Shown: positions 6,904-36,055 of the stretch, piece after piece
How positions within the stretch are numbered: the stretch's first letter is position 1
How the letters are laid out: every line of letters begins with the position of its first letter
Source of the DNA: a virus
Lineage: Duplodnaviria; Heunggongvirae; Uroviricota; Caudoviricetes
DNA length: 64,000 bases
Direction: 5' to 3' (one strand)
Virus record (IMG/VR): IMGVR_UViG_2718218305_000006
Notes under the pieces: model-generated
Told to the model about the DNA's origin: nothing
Database searches by the model: none
The model's input: only the letters and a program-made list of their open reading frames with translations
Made by a program: the position numbers and the translations under genes

Positions 6904-7461
6904 ATGAACCATGAAGAAATGAATCAGCGCTTCAGTCGTCTGGAAAATGAAATTGCTGAACTGAATAAAAAACTGTCGACGCTGATGCCTTCTGAAGATG
7001 AAAAAAAACGCCGCGATGAGCAGTTTGCTGCGTTTGACGATTATTGTCGGAAAGTGATGAGCAGAAATCTCTCAGAGTGTTTCAGTATTCATAATGATAA
7101 TTTCAGTGAGCTGGAATGGGAGTGTAACCGGCCATCCTTTGTTGTATCCGGTGATGCTGGGAAAATAACCATCTCAGAAAATGGAAAAGTAACACCGCCA
7201 TCGCACCAGCATAGTGAGGAGCTCATTGAATTTGCCATTGATTACCTGAAGAACAATAAAAAACAGGGGCTGATGAAGTGCATTGGTCGTTGCATGGGAT
7301 ATCTGCAGATAGCTGCTGAGATTGAAGCGCTGGCCAGTGGTGCGGACAAGGATGCAGTTGTGCGGGAGGCTCTTCTTCGTGAGTTTGACAACCCGCCCTT
7401 TAAAAAAGTGCCGGCTTACTGGTTTCATCCAGGACTGACTTATCTTAAAGGACGTATATAA
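6904..7461 (+). CDS. hypothetical protein inserted between holin and endolysin
   Basis: 185 aa; N-terminal coiled-coil-like segment (ENEIAELNKKLSTL); no family recognised; tightly packed after the holin stop. Confidence 0.5.
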   Translation: MNHEEMNQRFSRLENEIAELNKKLSTLMPSEDEKKRRDEQFAAFDDYCRKVMSRNLSECFSIHNDNFSELEWECNRPSFVVSGDAGKITISENGKVTPPSHQHSEELIEFAIDYLKNNKKQGLMKCIGRCMGYLQIAAEIEALASGADKDAVVREALLREFDNPPFKKVPAYWFHPGLTYLKGRI

Positions 7462-7503
7462 GCTGGCTCGTTATCTGTTGCCGATAAATCCTGATAAATA
7501 TCC

Positions 7504-8037
7504 ATGAACACCAAAATCAAATACGGCCTGTCGGCTGCCGTTCTGGCGCTGATTGCCGCTGGTGCGCCTGCGCCTGACATTCTCGACCAGTTTCTGGATG
7601 AAAAGGAAGGTAACCACACCACGGCATACCGTGATGGTGCGGGTATCTGGACCATCTGCCGAGGTGCCATCATGGTGGATGGTAAGCCTGTGATTCCTGG
7701 CATGAAGCTGTCGAAGGAAAAATGCGACCGGGTTAACGCCATTGAGCGTGATAAGGCGCTGGCATGGGTGGAGAAAAACATCAAAGTGCCACTGACCGAA
7801 CCCCAGAAAGCGGGTATTGCGTCATTCTGTCCTTACAACATTGGCCCAGGTAAGTGTTTCCCGTCGACGTTTTATAAACGAATTAATGCAGGTGATCGCA
7901 GGGGAGCGTGTGAGGCGATTCGCTGGTGGATTAAGGACGGTGGGCGTGATTGCCGCACACGTTCAAATAACTGCTACGGACAGGTTATTCGTCGTGACCA
8001 GGAAAGCGCATTAGCTTGTTGGGGGATAGATCAGTGA
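7504..8037 (+). CDS. R: SAR endolysin (lysozyme R)
   Basis: 177 aa; N-terminal signal-anchor-release segment [16 protein letters not shown] then lysozyme-like domain; near-identical to 48943..49476. Confidence 0.85.
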
Positions 8038-30560: not shown

Positions 30561-31112
30561 TTAACTTTTCATCGCTTCGTTATGGGGCATGGTTGGGGCA
30601 AACTCGCTTAACTGTGTATTTAACAGCGTTACCTGCGCATTATTATTTTCTGACATCCATTTCCCGTACACCTGAAACACCATTTGCGCATCTGCATGGC
30701 CCATCTGGTTTGCAATGAATGCCGGGTTAGCTCCTGCTGTTAACGACCAGCAGGCATAAGTGTGTCTCGACTGATACGATTTGCGATGGCGGATTCCGGC
30801 ACGCTTTACCGCTGCGTCCCACATCTGCCTTATTGAGTCAACGGTAAAATGGTCGCCATAATTTTTTACTTTCGCTGACACTTCAGGTTGAAAAACAAAG
30901 GTACATTTTTGTTTCTCTGTTCTGCCGAATTCTCTGAGGTGAACATCGATGATATGCTCTTTGCTCAGTCTCGTTAGTGCCATCTGACTCCGGAGAGCGT
31001 CGATTGCGGGCTTAATAAGGTGAATCACACGATTGGTTCCCGCCTGTGTTTTTGGTACTGTAAAACGGTCTTTTGCCAGATTTCTTCTGATTATCATTCT
31101 GCCATTGCGCAA
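30561..31112 (-). pseudogene. int: tyrosine integrase remnant, C-terminal catalytic half only
   Basis: ..TVPKTQAGTNRVIHL..SRHTYACWSLTAGANPAFIANQMGHADAQMVFQVYGKWM carries K/H-R-H-Y box residues; in-frame stop 6 codons upstream of the start; arm- and core-binding domains absent. Confidence 0.7.
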
Positions 31113-32338
31113 GATGGTTGCGGTTTTTCTTCATCATTTTCTTCTTCTGTTTCCTGCTTAGCAGACAGTTCGCGGTTAACTTCTTCCAGGATATCTTTTT
31201 CCGGTGTATGTCGTGCAGCAGTGAGAGTTTCCTTGCTGGGGTTCTCGTGATCAGTCTCCGTTAAGTAGGCGTTGATATACCCCTGAAGGCGTCCCGGGTA
31301 GTGATAAAACTCAGGGTGAGCGCTCCGGATAAGTGCAAAAATAGCGGCGCGGGAATAGTCCAGAATACCCGGGGTTGCGCGAAGTGCTGCGGACCATTCT
31401 TTGAACGGACTTTCTCTTTTCAGGACGATTTCTTTTGCGCGACGATAAACGCTGCCCGGAATTTCATAAATATTAAAATCCATCGGAAGTGTGGCTGCTG
31501 CAATCTCCACATCCAGCGTATCGAAGGTGTGTACTAAATTCGGATTGCGATCGGTTTTGTTCCCGCCACCGGCATTTGCACCGGAAGCCGTACGGGTGAT
31601 ACGCGAAACACGATTTCCTTTCATCCACTCTTTTGTCAGCAGACCCCGATCAGTGTAGTCAGCGTCCAGGTATGCCTCGAAAAAAGCAGTTATCAGTCCC
31701 AGGTCTGAATTACCGGGATTAGGGAAAACTTTGTCAGTGTCGCGTACCAGTTTGTGAAGGTCGCGAATCTCCAGCGGGTCGAGCAGCTTTGTTTTGTGAG
31801 AAATGGCCAGGGCAGTAACAGCCGGCAGTTCTTCCGCCCGTGCTATATGTAATGCCTGAAGTTCTTCCCGTGCAACGTGCGTTACTGGTTTTTCGCTGCC
31901 GTGTTGCGCAAGCCAGCGAATGGGCAGCTCCTGACCAGAAACCGGCAGGAGCATATTCTCCTCAATCTCCGTCATGTCTTCGCCGTTGACGTTGGTATTG
32001 TCAGTACTGGCTGGTTTCTCCTGCACGGAGGGAGAGGGCGCGATAAATACCATTGTAATGCCATCTTCCCCGCCTTTTTCGTATCGGTTGCAGAATTCGG
32101 TATCAAACACGCCTTCAGGTGGAAGGTCATTCACAACGGGTAAATGGACGCGAACGGGTTTTTTAAAGTCGTCTTCATCATAATCGTTGTCATCCATTGC
32201 GGTAATGCAGCGGGAGATGGCAACAGATAATTTTTTTGCTGTAGTCCAGTAAAAACCACCTTTAATTCCCAGACGTTTTCTGACTTTGTCATTTTTTGCT
32301 TCGCAATATAGCGCAAATTCTTCTTTATCAGTGCTCAT
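31094..32338 (-). CDS. hypothetical acidic protein (414 aa), ydfE-like position in a Qin-type operon
   Basis: Intact 1245-nt ORF overlapping the integrase remnant by 19 nt in another frame; Asp/Glu-rich stretches; no motif recognised. Confidence 0.55.
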   Translation of the reverse strand: MSTDKEEFALYCEAKNDKVRKRLGIKGGFYWTTAKKLSVAISRCITAMDDNDYDEDDFKKPVRVHLPVVNDLPPEGVFDTEFCNRYEKGGEDGITMVFIAPSPSVQEKPASTDNTNVNGEDMTEIEENMLLPVSGQELPIRWLAQHGSEKPVTHVAREELQALHIARAEELPAVTALAISHKTKLLDPLEIRDLHKLVRDTDKVFPNPGNSDLGLITAFFEAYLDADYTDRGLLTKEWMKGNRVSRITRTASGANAGGGNKTDRNPNLVHTFDTLDVEIAAATLPMDFNIYEIPGSVYRRAKEIVLKRESPFKEWSAALRATPGILDYSRAAIFALIRSAHPEFYHYPGRLQGYINAYLTETDHENPSKETLTAARHTPEKDILEEVNRELSAKQETEEENDEEKPQPSCAMAE

Positions 32339-32430: not shown

Positions 32431-32619
32431 TTATCCAGCCGGTGTTTCGTTATTCAGGTACAGCGATACTTTTTTTACCGGGAGGCATTCACCAGAAATT
32501 TTTTGCTCGTCTCTTGCCTGGAGGCAGGATTCTTTACTGGCATAAATTCCGGTAATCACATTCTGTGATTCACCCGTTATAAGAAAAACCGTCATCATCA
32601 GTGCAAATGCTGAAGTCAT
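32431..32619 (-). CDS. YdfD-like small protein with N-terminal hydrophobic segment
   Basis: 62 aa, MTSAFALMMTVFLITG..; ATGA overlap with dicB; position as ydfD in the Qin dicB operon. Confidence 0.5.
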   Translation of the reverse strand: MTSAFALMMTVFLITGESQNVITGIYASKESCLQARDEQKISGECLPVKKVSLYLNNETPAG

Positions 32620-32804
32620 TGACGTTCTCCGAAAATACCAAGTTCAAGAAGAGCAATTCGGGAAAGTATGGAATTATCATTGAGCAGATAAGGCTCATAT
32701 TTCCTCATGTTAATGGCATCTTCAGTAAACTCCCGGTTACTGAGCAGAACACCAATATCAAAACAACCTTCAGACGTATTAACGTTTGGTAATAACGTTT
32801 CCAT
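32616..32804 (-). CDS. dicB: cell division inhibitor DicB-like
   Basis: 62 aa, METLLPNVNTSEGCFDIGVLLSNREFTEDAIN.. matches recalled E. coli DicB N-terminal half; lies just downstream of DicF. Confidence 0.7.
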   Translation of the reverse strand: METLLPNVNTSEGCFDIGVLLSNREFTEDAINMRKYEPYLLNDNSILSRIALLELGIFGERQ

Positions 32805-32973
32805 TATCGCGTCCTCAACAATGAATTTTGTGATGCAGTGCCTGGTGCCTCCAGGTGACGTTAACCAGTTAACAATTAACGCCGGATACAGAGAATCCAC
32901 CCATAACACTGTTTTTGGTTTTAACTGTTCCGCGTGCGCTTAGCCGCATTCACCGCATCACAAAATTCACTTT

Positions 32974-33031
32974 AAAAAGGGCGGCAGAGCAGCCACGGAG
33001 TAAAACTGATACCGCCAAACGTCACCAGAAA
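32974..33031 (-). ncRNA. dicF: DicF small RNA
   Basis: Minus strand reads TTTCTGGTGACGTTTGGCGGTATCAGTTTTACTCCGTGGCTGCTCTGCCGCCCTTTTT, matching recalled DicF with its terminator hairpin. Confidence 0.7.
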
Positions 33032-33368
33032 ATTGATAACAGAGGGCGTTGCAGCGGGGTTGTCACTTAAGCGTATGGTCAACCTGACAACCCGGTGTCC
33101 TCAATGGGGAAGGAATAACCCCGCCATACTTACCGCCGCGCCATTTCGCGGAGTGCCACAACCGGAAGCGCACGTTCGAAGAAATCTAACGACAAGCCTT
33201 CTAAGGGAAAGAGCTTCGCCGTACGCTTTCGCGTTATGCACTGACTTTTCAGGGAAATATCCTTTCAGTAAACTGTCAGTACCGGATTCTTATCCGTGTC
33301 CGGCGCACGACCACACGTGACAGCGTGTTGGTCTCCATTTTTAACCCAGAACCTCAATGGAGGATAAA

Positions 33369-33578
33369 ATGCCAAACAAAAAAAGAAATCCGCTTATTGA
33401 AAAACAGATTGAATGCCTGGTAAATCAACTCAGGCAATCAGGGTTATTAAAAACTCATTCAGAGTTGAGGCTCACAGAATCAGCATTCGACGATAAATTA
33501 AATAATGTCCTTTATAATGGCATTATTGATTTTAATCGTTCTGTTGGTCGCCGCGGCCCTGCTGGTGTTTCCTTATAA
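33369..33578 (+). CDS. hypothetical small protein (69 aa), convergent with dicB operon
   Basis: GGAGG RBS 6 nt upstream of ATG; an overlapping hydrophobic 32-aa ORF (33517..33615) is an alternative. Confidence 0.3.
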   Translation: MPNKKRNPLIEKQIECLVNQLRQSGLLKTHSELRLTESAFDDKLNNVLYNGIIDFNRSVGRRGPAGVSL

Positions 33579-34229
33579 TTACCAGTCAATCCAGAGTGGA
33601 CCGTGTTCAGCGTAAATATAACTGTACACATCCAGATTATATTTGTGGTCTGTTAAGAACAGGCCGCAAATACATGCCGAAGCTTCCAGTGCAGCGGCTC
33701 TGTTACTGAATAACCATGTAGCAACATTCCAGCGTTTTTCTGCATCCCAGTCTTTCTCAAGGCCTGATACCATGAAGAAACCGTTAGTGTTGCCATCAAA
33801 TAATTCTGTTTCCAAATTTTTAAGCAATGCCTGATGGACTCTTGCCAGGTATTCCGCCGGAATTTCGCCACGAATTCTGATGAGATTGTCATAAACAAAC
33901 ATGTTCCCCGCATATGGCGATTTTTCTTTCTTGTTTTTTAAACCAGCATCATGAGCAAACTGATCAATTTCTTCTTCCGTTGGTTTCGTATTGATGTTTT
34001 GCGCTGTCGTTTCTGCAATTTTATTTGCCACACTCTCTGAGTCGTGTTTATTTATAGACGCACAGAAATACAATCCGGTAAACGCATCGCGCACATTACG
34101 AGCCATATTATCAGTGTCTTTTTTCGTTACCGATTCCAATTCAAGTTCGTTCAGACGATGACGAAGTGTGTGTGCTGCAATCTCCTGGATTGAAGGAGGT
34201 AAATCTTTAAATTCCATCGTCAACCTCAT
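33579..34229 (-). CDS. hypothetical protein (216 aa), second gene of the coupled pair beside cI
   Basis: ATG overlaps the stop of the upstream 77-aa gene (TGATG); no family recognised. Confidence 0.6.
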   Translation of the reverse strand: MRLTMEFKDLPPSIQEIAAHTLRHRLNELELESVTKKDTDNMARNVRDAFTGLYFCASINKHDSESVANKIAETTAQNINTKPTEEEIDQFAHDAGLKNKKEKSPYAGNMFVYDNLIRIRGEIPAEYLARVHQALLKNLETELFDGNTNGFFMVSGLEKDWDAEKRWNVATWLFSNRAAALEASACICGLFLTDHKYNLDVYSYIYAEHGPLWIDW

Positions 34230-34462
34230 CAGTCAGTGTTTCTGGCTAACCAGCGACGCGCGCCAGCTTCAGTTTTAAACGTTTTGCTTTTGGTATACGT
34301 CATCGCGGTGAACGTACCGTCCTGGTTGGGGAACACGCCACATACCAGAGATTCGTTGTTGCCAAGATTGAGCGTATCCATGTTGACCTCATTTCCCCTT
34401 AACGCCGGGGTAGCGGAACAAAAACCTGCTGCATAGTTATTAAAGTTGAACCCTGCCGTCAT
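34229..34462 (-). CDS. hypothetical protein (77 aa), first gene downstream of cI
   Basis: Same strand as cI, separated by a 211-bp gap; coupled to the 216-aa gene. Confidence 0.5.
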   Translation of the reverse strand: MTAGFNFNNYAAGFCSATPALRGNEVNMDTLNLGNNESLVCGVFPNQDGTFTAMTYTKSKTFKTEAGARRWLARNTD

Positions 34463-34673
34463 GTTCTTACGCCTCGGGCTGGCTACTTAACCCCTGACCA
34501 CTGCCTGGTAACTCGAAGTATTGCCCTGCATTCTGTGGGGCGGGGTGAGGGAATGAATGAAGTTTAGAAAAACGAACATTTAAGGTCAATGTTTTTTTAT
34601 CAAAACATTTTAAGCAGGCAGCTGTTACGCCATCACTACGATGGCATACAGTTAATCAAATAGATGAGGTTGG

Positions 34674-35312
34674 TTAAATATCTTGTTGAATTTTAAAGCA
34701 TACTCCCAATATGCAAGATAGATCATCCAGCATAATTGAAGGGTAGCGAGGATTCGTGGGGACTAAAAGAATATCCGGCCCTTCTATCTCCAGTTTGCGA
34801 ATGACAGGCGTTGTGGTCCCTTTGGGTAAGGCAAGGACAATATTTCCTGGTTGTACGATTCGATCGGGATCAACAAAAACTGTTGAACCATTTGGGATGG
34901 AAACTCCACCACCAGATGTCGACATACTGTCACTCTCTAGAACAACAGCAAAGGTATTGGCCGGGATTTCTCCGACAAGCTGCACACAAGAGGTTATTGA
35001 GGAATTTTTCATATAATCACTCCAGCTTGCTGCCTGCTGAAGTGATAGTAGCGGAACCGTTTTTATCGGCGGTAAAGATAGATCAAGCGAATCACCTGTA
35101 TTTAACTCTCCTCCATTAAGAAGCCAATTTTCGTTTACTTTCAATATCTTTGCCAGTGAACTTATGTAACGCGAGGACGGCGCTCCTCCACCGTTCATCC
35201 ATTGACTTACGGAGCCTTTTGATGCGCCAGTGGCATTGACAAGGTCTTTGCCTTTCAAGTTTAGCGCATGCATACGTTGGGTTATGCGTTCAGATATTGT
35301 TTGCTTGTTCAT
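34674..35312 (-). CDS. cI: CI-type repressor (HTH + S24 LexA-like peptidase domain)
   Basis: 212 aa; N-terminal HTH (..GASKGSVSQWMNG..) and C-terminal S24-like segment; divergent from cro-like gene. Confidence 0.85.
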   Translation of the reverse strand: MNKQTISERITQRMHALNLKGKDLVNATGASKGSVSQWMNGGGAPSSRYISSLAKILKVNENWLLNGGELNTGDSLDLSLPPIKTVPLLSLQQAASWSDYMKNSSITSCVQLVGEIPANTFAVVLESDSMSTSGGGVSIPNGSTVFVDPDRIVQPGNIVLALPKGTTTPVIRKLEIEGPDILLVPTNPRYPSIMLDDLSCILGVCFKIQQDI

Positions 35313-35403
35313 GTTTTGATTTTAAAACACAGATGGTTTTGTTTCTTGACTTTCTTTGGTTTTGATTATTAAACTTTTGGCGTTCAGTTTTATGGAGCGA
35401 CTC
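35313..35403. promoter_or_regulatory. immunity-region intergenic (divergent pRM/pR with operators, inferred)
   Basis: 91-bp AT-rich spacer between divergent cI and cro-like genes containing TTGACT and partial palindromes. Confidence 0.4.
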
Positions 35404-35646
35404 ATGAAAAAATCAGAAGTATTAGGCTATTTTGGCGGAGTTGTTAAAACAGCCGCCGCTCTAGGAACGTCAAAAACCACAGTCAGCATGTGGGGGGAAG
35501 ACGTTCCGTGGAAATGGGCGTTGCTAATTCAGGCAGTCACTGCCGGGGCGCTCAAATATGAGTTACACATACCGACGGTTGTCATTCCCGATTCTGATCA
35601 TAATCCGCCTTCTAACCAAGGGGGGATTCATGAAAATCAAGCATGA
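35404..35646 (+). CDS. cro: Cro-like DNA-binding protein
   Basis: 80 aa, GGAG RBS, HTH-like ..AAALGTSKTTVSMW..; first rightward gene opposite cI. Confidence 0.65.
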   Translation: MKKSEVLGYFGGVVKTAAALGTSKTTVSMWGEDVPWKWALLIQAVTAGALKYELHIPTVVIPDSDHNPPSNQGGIHENQA

Positions 35647-36055
35647 ACACATCCGCATGGCGATGAATGCCTGGGCGCGTCCTGATGGCGAAAAAGTTCC
35701 GGCAGCTGGAATAACCCAGGCTTATTTTGAGTTGGGTATGACGTTTCCTGAACTGTACGACGACAGCCATCCGGAAGCCCTGGCTCGCAATACCCAGAAA
35801 ATTTTCCGCTGGATAGAGAAAGACACCCCTGATGCAGTTGAAAAAATGCAGGCTCTGTTACCGGCGATCGAAAAGGCAATGCCGCCTCTGCTGGTGGCCC
35901 GTATGCGCAGTCACAGCTCTGAATATTACCGTGAGATCGTCGAACGGAGGGATCGGCTGGTGAAAGATGTGGATGATTTTGTCGCAGCGGCGATCGCCTG
36001 GGGCACCCTGACTAACAGTGGGGGTCAGCCTGGTAATGCTGTTGTCGTGCATTGA
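35630..36055 (+). CDS. CII-like regulator (YdaT family)
   Basis: 141 aa from an internal ATG; position after cro; MKIKHEHIRMAMNAWARPDGEK.. resembles Rac YdaT as recalled. Confidence 0.55.
   Translation: MKIKHEHIRMAMNAWARPDGEKVPAAGITQAYFELGMTFPELYDDSHPEALARNTQKIFRWIEKDTPDAVEKMQALLPAIEKAMPPLLVARMRSHSSEYYREIVERRDRLVKDVDDFVAAAIAWGTLTNSGGQPGNAVVVH

Follow-up and report, generated by a model that had tools for sequence, protein, structure and literature searches.

The stretch of DNA analysed here, referred to as the window, comprises 64 kb of the viral record IMGVR_UViG_2718218305_000006 (Caudoviricetes), and all window positions are counted from its first letter. Directly past the gene of a cI-like repressor lie ydfA and an orphan gene encoding a protein of 212 amino acids (aa), both on the minus strand, followed by a gene of 69 aa on the opposite strand, which last two genes meet stop codon against stop codon. 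As the comparisons below indicate, the locus holds a real, conserved, and uncharacterised two-gene module, formed by the coding segment of the C-terminal domain of the 212-aa protein—designated CTD-A—and the convergent 69-aa gene. Of the three genes, ydfA was already known; the PHROG families of the other two proteins are orphans.

The initial annotation of this locus had described two minus-strand open reading frames (ORFs) past cI, of 77 aa (34229-34462) and 216 aa (33579-34229), and we confirmed both at those positions. The annotation had further placed them 211 bp from cI and proposed that they were translationally coupled through a TGATG overlap. The TGA and the ATG do share one base, and the 211-bp distance holds for the 77-aa ORF; but for both maximal ORFs the start is probably mis-set. 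Over residues 29-75 the 77-aa ORF matches Pfam PF07151 (DUF1391) (102.1 bits against a cut-off of 27.3; E 1.2e-29), the YdfA of strain K-12 is 88% identical to it when counted from Met28, the nucleotide homology to K-12 starts about 40 nt 5' of the Met28 ATG, thus taking in the Shine-Dalgarno sequence AAGGGGAAATGAGG, and the model of the Prokaryotic Genome Annotation Pipeline (PGAP) has 50 aa. Since the K-12 homology and the PGAP model both start at Met28, we consider the 77-aa ORF over-extended and place the ydfA orthologue (50 aa) at 34229-34381 on the minus strand, which start lies 292 bp from cI. The position of ydfA among the first genes past the repressor agrees with that in Qin, mEp460, and Rac. 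For the larger ORF, PHROG 2151 matches from residue 5 onward (E 1.9e-147; profile positions 1-212), the relatives all open with MEFKDLP or MQFKDLP, the PGAP model has 212 aa, and a GAGG motif stands 6 nt ahead of the ATG; because the PHROG start, the N-termini of the relatives, the PGAP model, and the GAGG agree, we place the gene—called 'Ybl81' in some sources—at 33579-34217 on the minus strand, so that the upstream ATG of the 216-aa ORF is probably unused. The two genes are accordingly close-packed, the second beginning 11 nt after the ydfA stop, and do not overlap; the proposed coupling would depend on start codons that probably are not used. Likewise, the earlier statement that neither protein contained a recognisable domain stands for the larger one, which has no recognisable family, but not for the 77-aa ORF, which is a DUF1391 protein.

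The 69-aa gene (33369-33578, plus strand; PGAP coding sequence WP_001133037.1; PHROG 4274, E 1.4e-51) encodes a basic protein, the predicted partner of CTD-A, and is preceded by the strong Shine-Dalgarno sequence GGAGGA at 33359-33364. That gene had gone unreported in the initial annotation, which took the 77-aa and 216-aa ORFs as the functional pair; the unit that we find conserved is instead CTD-A plus the opposite-strand 69-aa gene. When compared with copies 85-89% identical, ydfA, the 212-aa gene, and the 69-aa gene gave ratios of nonsynonymous to synonymous substitution of 0.16-0.27, 0.27-0.45, and 0.07-0.23, respectively; all three are real coding genes under purifying selection. The PHROG 2151 family comprises at least 120 clusters at 65-100% identity, from Escherichia plus one Salmonella cluster, and literature searches on Ybl81 and DUF1391 returned nothing on function.

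Many chromosomes of E. coli O157:H7 and O121 match the window segment 33300-34700 at 100% identity; in a set of 5426 complete E. coli genomes, 80% or more of that segment is present in 541, and 4400 contain at least a portion, for the most part ydfA. Homology to the K-12 Qin prophage covers 34419-34238 (ydfA) and 33309-32700 (the DicF leader, DicF, and dicB), with a break between 34237 and 33310, which broken stretch stands in the place of the Qin ydfB and ydfC genes. Neither the 212-aa nor the 69-aa protein has similarity to YdfB or YdfC. Of the two ORFs first annotated, the 77-aa one (ydfA) proves to be a routine lambdoid early gene, but that description does not extend to the 212-aa protein. 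The earlier suggestion that the larger gene was inserted cargo applies in turn from about codon 50-69 onward, but not to the N-terminal module, which is part of a shared backbone.

The AlphaFold2 (AF2) models divide the 212-aa protein into an N-terminal helical module (residues 1-55; 34053-34217, minus strand), an acidic linker of low confidence (residues 56-97; 33927-34052, minus strand), and CTD-A (residues 98-212; 33582-33926, minus strand). The first 50 or so residues recur in PHROGs 1363, 9419, 6937, and 33007, and the N-module is also found in proteins of Shiga-toxin (Stx) phages, of mEp460, and of PPompW prophages, whose C-termini are unrelated. Across 80 IMG/VR loci the module carries at least six unrelated C-termini, with the N alleles and the C types reshuffled. 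We denoted the C types A (that of the 212-aa protein of the window), B (135 aa), C (112/119 aa), D (124 aa), E (186 aa), F (147 aa; Stx phages), and G (121 aa; mEp460). The 212-aa protein is thus, judged by these sequence comparisons, chimeric and modular.

Comparison of the DNA with type C and type E loci delimited the core of a swappable cassette at 33375-34068, made up of the linker, CTD-A, and the body of the 69-aa gene. The homology with those loci stops at 34010 or 34069 (about codon 50-69) and resumes at 33374 or 33381, which latter junction lies just past the start codon of the opposite-strand small gene; the core is therefore flanked by shared backbone: at one end by the coding DNA of the N-module, at the other by the small gene's ribosome-binding site (RBS) and ATG. 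The cassette occurs beside LexA-type as well as DicA-type repressors.

In the Qin-type loci a convergent ORF abuts or overlaps the 3' end of the big gene of types A, B, C, and E, a different and unrelated one for each type; type D is inconsistent, with different ORFs following the gene in different loci. All of these convergent ORFs correspond to recognised PHROG families that have no assigned function. Types A, C, and E have in common the DNA upstream of the convergent gene and its RBS and ATG context ATGGAGGATAAAATG, so that the expression signals of those small genes belong to the backbone and only their bodies to the cassette. A small hairpin at 33316-33334 (ACACG-TGACAG-CGTGT), on the upstream side of the 69-aa gene, keeps its stem in type C and in some type E loci, where the loop is inverted (CTGTCA).

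Within complete E. coli genomes the coding segment of CTD-A was present at 751 places in 600 genomes and the 69-aa gene at 744 places in 597, the two occurring together at 744 of the 751. Among the CTD-A loci that we fetched, the small gene was present in 31 of 33, the exceptions being one contig end and the locus L041, in which a 162-bp deletion has removed the small gene only. In another locus, L040, the big gene is frameshifted and the small gene is intact. L041 (3799-4434, minus strand) is occupied by a different convergent ORF (PHROG 1244), the product of which, about 172-211 aa long, contains a coiled coil and ends in a Cys-rich segment resembling a Zn ribbon. The convergent slot may also contain a protein of 148-155 aa with two predicted transmembrane helices (PHROG 6315), as seen in L068, L075, and L082 (at about +79 to +525 past the type D gene) and in L089 (1877-2344, minus strand), where it shares a strand with the small-protein homologue and immediately precedes it. 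This two-helix protein is a possible membrane effector, its designation as a SLATT effector having as sole support a weak PADLOC match to RTasSLATT (E 0.025).

An exhaustive search with HMMER, over 1.84 billion representative proteins, returned only 49 matches, nearly all to the N-module alone, and in the same search CTD-A was found outside the E. coli family in only two Salmonella architectures. There CTD-A (30-40% identity) follows a different N-module (MFNVKRNG...), with or without an HTH_3 domain of cI/Cro type, and the backbone, P2-like, is also another: an integrase, a helix-turn-helix (HTH) repressor, Phage_Cox, and then the gene, with a C4 antisense RNA and with neither DicF nor dicB; nor is ydfA adjacent. 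A convergent small gene of 64-69 aa nevertheless overlaps the 3' end of the Salmonella CTD-A gene by 11-53 nt; and its product has 42-52% identity to the 69-aa protein of the window (E 1e-11 to 1e-24), the motifs SGLLK and RRGxPAG being present in both. The unit kept across genera and backbones is therefore CTD-A plus the small protein and not ydfA plus the 212-aa gene. This cross-genus pairing is the strongest single support for the two being a putative cognate pair, and we infer that the co-occurrence is due to function rather than to linkage.

In one Salmonella locus a strong terminator hairpin stands on the strand of the small gene, about 50 nt past its stop, which antisense terminator suggests that the small gene is a separate transcription unit. 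The principle of a constant N-terminus with a variable C-terminus is seen in the Salmonella N-module family as well: the locus L090, with the Salmonella N-module and another C-terminus, has a different convergent ORF. The small proteins of type C and of L090 share a weak 27% identity (pairwise E 5e-6), and the C-termini of the corresponding big proteins have no detectable similarity. The C4-type antisense RNAs (Rfam, 73-75 bits) are located at 4273-4360 in L089, 3853-3940 in L090, and 7918-8005 in L091; and the Salmonella elements with the pair or its relatives also hold a 'Derepression' family protein, a lambdoid recE, and DUF1627, in a mosaic backbone.

AF2 models the N-module as a helical hairpin of residues 8-24 and 32-55, with a predicted local distance difference test score (pLDDT) of 70-79. 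For CTD-A, the pooled E. coli and Salmonella sequences gave a confident model (pLDDT 78.5, with 85-93 in the core; predicted template-modelling score 0.73) of topology β-β-α-β-β-α-β, which we regard as a predicted orphan α/β domain whose invariant residues—FDG..NG excepted—are mostly hydrophobic or structural. The two partners have complementary charges in both genera, with isoelectric points of 4.6-4.9 for CTD-A and 9.4-9.9 for the small protein; and the 69-aa protein is hydrophilic (grand average of hydropathy -0.53), with no hydrophobic segment in its sequence.

Searches with Pfam, NCBIfam, and PADLOC on ydfA, the 212-aa and 69-aa proteins, and six other cassette proteins gave DUF1391, in ydfA, as the sole match; below-threshold matches to P33MONOX, ROS_MUCR, Cas11a, and IraP were dismissed as noise. 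In PADLOC-DB v2, with E values up to 1, the 77-, 212-, and 69-aa proteins matched nothing, so that the defence or anti-defence role first proposed for the 77-aa/216-aa pair finds no counterpart among known defence components. A weak match of the full-length 212-aa family to a Noc/ParB profile from the PDB (E 0.036) was attributed to chance, since a profile of the N-module only did not reproduce it. The YdaG protein of Rac, compared by eye only, has no evident resemblance to the N-module; tblastn of CTD-A and the small protein against 50,697 phage genomes gave no match; and no trafficking or secretion domain was recognised in the 212-aa and 69-aa proteins, signal peptides not being specifically tested.

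The initial annotation had left undecided whether the genes past cI were transcribed with the repressor from pRM or from a pL-type promoter. The gap does contain a pL- or dicBp-type candidate abutting an operator of the cI/cro type: the promoter, TTGACC-17-TAAACT (34561-34589, minus strand), matches the consensus and scores 13.8 in a position weight matrix (PWM), and directly upstream of its -35 hexamer lies the OL-type operator TGTTTTTTTATCAAAACA (34590-34607), a perfect TGTTTT-N6-AAAACA palindrome. The second perfect copy of that palindrome in the window, at 35312-35329, is the only other one and lies in the cI/cro intergenic region, by a cro-side (pR) candidate of the same hexamer types, TTGACT-18-TAAACT (35346-35375; PWM score 13.6). 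With at most one mismatch, the operator pattern occurs 3 times in the 64 kb against 0.26 expected by chance. The segments 34561-34607 and 35312-35375 thus share one design, consisting of a perfect operator upstream, a -35 TTGAC(C/T), and a -10 TAAACT, the -10 of both promoters being moreover located inside a degenerate second operator copy (TGTTCG..TAAACT and GGTTTT..TAAACT, respectively). The predicted pL and pR, with the same operator, form a pair of the classical pL/pR design.

No canonical terminator was found on the 3' side of cI, so that some read-through from cI is possible. In the Qin prophage of K-12, dicBp is repressed by DicA and constitutes the pL analogue (PMC5069750, PMC10448788); and because the locus has a pL-type promoter and a shared operator, as with dicBp, the default expectation is expression upon derepression and not cotranscription with cI. 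By that same default expectation, ydfA, the 212-aa gene, DicF, dicB, and ydfD would constitute an early-left operon under the predicted repressor-controlled promoter. The repressor itself (212 aa; 34674-35312, minus strand) has an N-terminal HTH and a C-terminal LexA/S24 autopeptidase (Pfam Peptidase_S24, 8e-13, and HTH_3, 2e-4; PHROG 4, transcriptional repressor, 5e-40). The gene order bears out the earlier placement of the locus in the early-left accessory slot beside the repressor, and Rfam and Pfam confirm the Qin-type DicF, dicB, and ydfD-like genes downstream: the DicF small RNA (sRNA) at 32979-33030 (minus strand; Rfam RF00039, 75 bits against a gathering score of 48, E 1e-15); dicB at 32616-32804 (minus strand; 62 aa in the PGAP model), for which Pfam DicB (2.7e-36) matches residues 36-97 of a 97-aa ORF, that longer ORF (to 32909) being an over-extended gene model; and the ydfD-like DUF1482 gene at 32431-32619 (minus strand; Pfam PF07358, 2.9e-15).

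Except for the ydfB/ydfC slot, then, the operon is of the Qin dicBF type. It resembles that of K-12 (dicA / dicBp-ydfA-ydfB-ydfC-dicF-dicB-ydfD) in the order of ydfA, the DicF leader, DicF, dicB, and ydfD, at 88-93% nucleotide identity, as well as in having a promoter, here a predicted one, just past the repressor gene and toxic division inhibitors at the 3' end (PMC5069750, PMC10448788); and it differs in that the repressor is a LexA/S24-type cI instead of DicA and in that the 212-aa and convergent 69-aa genes stand where Qin has ydfB and ydfC. The ydaF-sieB region of Rac is similar in another respect, since an opposite-strand gene comes there right after the DUF1391 gene (ydaF) and before the genes of an sRNA and an FtsZ inhibitor. 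The 3' ends of sieB and ydaF overlap by 4 nt, whereas those of the 69-aa and 212-aa genes abut; SieB is a membrane protein of 162 aa, in contrast to the soluble, basic 69-aa protein, which is unrelated to it in sequence; and Rac has no gene with the N-module and a variable C-terminus facing sieB. With respect to homology with SieB, the 69-aa protein gave no Pfam match and is not membrane-like, so that the position in the slot alone agrees.

In polymorphic toxin/immunity loci a constant N-terminus is combined with a variable C-terminal domain and an adjacent small gene specific for the domain type, and in the operons of pore-forming colicins an opposite-strand immunity gene lies between the SOS-induced toxin gene and the lysis gene. 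The locus resembles these systems in the at least six C types on the MEFKDLP module and in the type-specific convergent gene of types A, B, C, and E; it differs in that no known toxin or immunity domain was found and that the products are phage early-operon proteins. Lambdoid and Gifsy immunity regions, for their part, carry defence genes that need self-immunity (PMC8585504, PMC13043305, PMC12724215). BstA/aba, RemAIN with RemI, HepS, GiPD474, and the P22 SieB/Esc pair are likewise variable accessory genes beside the repressor, in which a blocker expressed in the lysogen must spare its own prophage; but PADLOC and Pfam disclosed no relation in sequence or fold to those systems, for which the layout of a domain fusion plus a convergent gene is not described. 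The swapping of a domain together with a convergent partner is an undescribed design within the variable lambdoid immunity and early-left accessory cassettes. In a type II toxin-antitoxin system one would expect a codirectional bicistronic operon and a toxin fold or an antitoxin DNA-binding domain, neither of which features is found in this pair.

As a tentative explanation, possible though far from assured, we propose that the lysogen makes the 69-aa protein as a factor for exclusion or regulation and that CTD-A, mounted on the N-module, is its cognate neutraliser, made upon induction. The small protein would be produced in the lysogen from a weak promoter of its own and the conserved RBS. 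The early-left operon—ydfA, the 212-aa gene, DicF, dicB, and ydfD—would open at the pL-type promoter guarded by the cI operator, and upon cleavage of cI the transcription from pL would pass antisense through the small gene and silence it. That same transcription would yield the 212-aa protein, and binding by its CTD-A would neutralise the small protein, thereby sparing the phage's own early programme, which effect would amount to self-immunity. The constant N-module would tether or present whatever C-terminal domain the cassette brings, and cassette types B, C, E, and G might be further specificities of the same scheme. We found no terminator between the 212-aa and 69-aa genes; and because these genes face each other without one, and transcription from pL can reach dicF and dicB only by crossing the small gene in antisense, the expression of the two would be expected to be mutually exclusive. 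It is this expected exclusivity, together with the presence of sieB in the same slot of Rac and the known self-immunity needs of defence genes in immunity regions, that leads us to favour the proposal.

Several points weigh against it. The interaction of CTD-A with the 69-aa protein, and with it the status of the two as cognate partners, is something that we infer from the comparisons presented above. A PWM scan upstream of the 69-aa gene found no convincing promoter: the best usable candidate, TTTTCA-17-TAAACT (33246-33274, plus strand), is weak, scoring 9.6 against the 13.6-13.8 of the pL and pR candidates, and lies in backbone kept in types A, B, C, and E; and the top sigma-70-like site, TTAACC-18-TAAAAT (33341-33370, plus strand), has a -10 that overlaps the RBS and start codon of the gene and so can be of no use for the annotated start. 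The soluble 69-aa protein has no known exclusion, toxin, or DNA-binding domain, searches of PADLOC, Pfam, and the PDB having been empty. Finally, there are alleles with CTD-A in which the small gene is deleted, for instance in clusters of 110 and 33 member sequences.

A wider form of the same proposal, which we consider speculative and on balance improbable, would see in these loci a polymorphic two-gene system, not described before, of Qin- and Rac-type lambdoid prophages in Escherichia and Salmonella, composed of a small effector of the lysogen and an induction-made neutralising domain on a constant adaptor, with the cassettes (A, B, C, E, G, and others) constituting exclusion groups that would block co-resident phages, be they unrelated or competitors, and spare self along with kin of the same cassette.

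The alternative that fares best, though we think it somewhat unlikely, is that the two genes are independent morons which travel together by adjacency between recombination-prone segments of the backbone and have no functional interaction. The convergent slot does take up unrelated genes elsewhere (the SLATT-like two-helix ORF, the coiled-coil/Zn-ribbon ORF, and the sieB of Rac), type D genes are followed by different ORFs in different loci, a relative in an Stx phage (PA2 gp25) has no convergent partner, and L041 lost the small gene alone. Yet the type A pair has outlasted a protein divergence of 50-70%, the replacement of the N-module, and a change of backbone, with the abutting or overlapping 3'-to-3' geometry kept; and joint presence at 744 of 751 places in E. 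coli speaks against it as well.

Unlikely too, in our estimation, is the reverse polarity, according to which CTD-A on its constant N-module would be an early-lytic toxin directed against the host or co-resident prophages and the 69-aa protein a constitutive antidote against leaky transcription from pL. The constant N-terminus, the variable C-terminus, and the type-specific convergent small gene would fit such an arrangement, as would the control by a LexA-like repressor of an operon ending in division inhibitors and a lysis gene (dicF, dicB, ydfD), the complementary charges of CTD-A and the small protein, and the frameshifted big gene beside an intact small gene in L040, which is the order of decay to be expected if the toxin is lost first. 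CTD-A, however, has no toxin-like fold or catalytic motif; the transcription from pL would run antisense to the antidote gene just when the toxin was being made; and the alleles with an intact CTD-A and a deleted small gene, in the two clusters already mentioned, are not rare, which circumstance is hard to square with a strictly required antidote.

Still less do we incline toward a regulatory pair, a reading that strikes us as doubtful, in which the basic 69-aa protein would bind nucleic acid and, together with convergent transcription, damp the read-through into the toxic dicF and dicB in lysogens, to be titrated upon induction by CTD-A, a domain of ACT-like kind serving oligomerisation or sensing and fused in the Salmonella relatives to an HTH of cI/Cro type: DicF and dicB are missing from the Salmonella loci that have this pair, so that the pair is not specific to dicBF control; the small protein matches no family that binds DNA or RNA; and the many alternative cassettes would be left without an obvious reason.

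The module envisaged in the initial annotation, a coupled 77-aa/216-aa pair of the rexAB kind for defence or anti-defence and possibly expressed with cI in the lysogen, had in its favour the adjacency of the genes on the cI strand, the TGATG, and a larger protein without a known domain, but is now very improbable, being largely refuted by the identity of the 77-aa ORF as ydfA, a backbone gene that 4400 of the 5426 E. coli genomes contain whether or not the 212-aa gene is there, as well as by the 11 nt between the corrected genes, the predicted promoter under cI-operator control between cI and ydfA where a rexAB-like module would be cotranscribed with cI, the absence of Pfam and PADLOC matches to such modules, and the travelling of CTD-A with the 69-aa gene and not with ydfA, which is not adjacent in Salmonella.

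Strains of Shiga-toxin-producing E. coli (STEC) carry many lambdoid prophages each, the interplay of which controls the induction and spread of the Stx phages, and the neighbourhood of the repressor has proved to supply genes for exclusion and defence, among them sieB, rexAB, RemAIN, HepS, and DicB. In the locus described here an early-operon gene retains its N-module and exchanges its C-terminal domain along with the small gene facing it, at least one such pair being common to E. coli and Salmonella, in differing phage backbones. If the proposed roles of cognate effector and neutraliser were true, these loci would add to the prophage self/non-self systems a new class, in which specificities can be swapped, and a function would be provided for PHROGs 2151, 4274, 1363, 10348, 4987, and 10133. 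If they were not, the gene models would still have been corrected and the genes assigned to dicBF, an operon toxic when expressed and protective against phage.

Downstream, beyond the ydfD-like gene, come a truncated recE and then an integrase fragment; this left arm of the prophage (30561-32338) is decayed, recE being cut to a 414-aa ORF and the integrase to a 183-aa fragment, next to which, in strain TR01, IS66 and IS256 elements follow. The prophage is a Qin-like STEC element and probably cryptic. The cI gene is intact in the window at 212 aa; in L001 (O157:H7 TR01, 7375-7713), which is 99.9% identical to the window over 10.6 kb with 8 gap openings, PGAP gives only a C-terminal 'LexA family protein' of 112 aa, so that the repressor may be frameshifted in some O157 strains. 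The leader between DicF and dicB (32772-32981, minus strand) matches the Salmonella sRNA family STnc100 in Rfam at 34.7 bits (E 8e-5), which is below the gathering score of 47. On the cro side, finally, the window contains at 35356-36055 (plus strand) a P22_Cro-type protein and a protein with a YdaT_toxin domain, whose maximal ORFs overlap by about 90 nt, which arrangement recalls the ydaS/ydaT genes of Rac.

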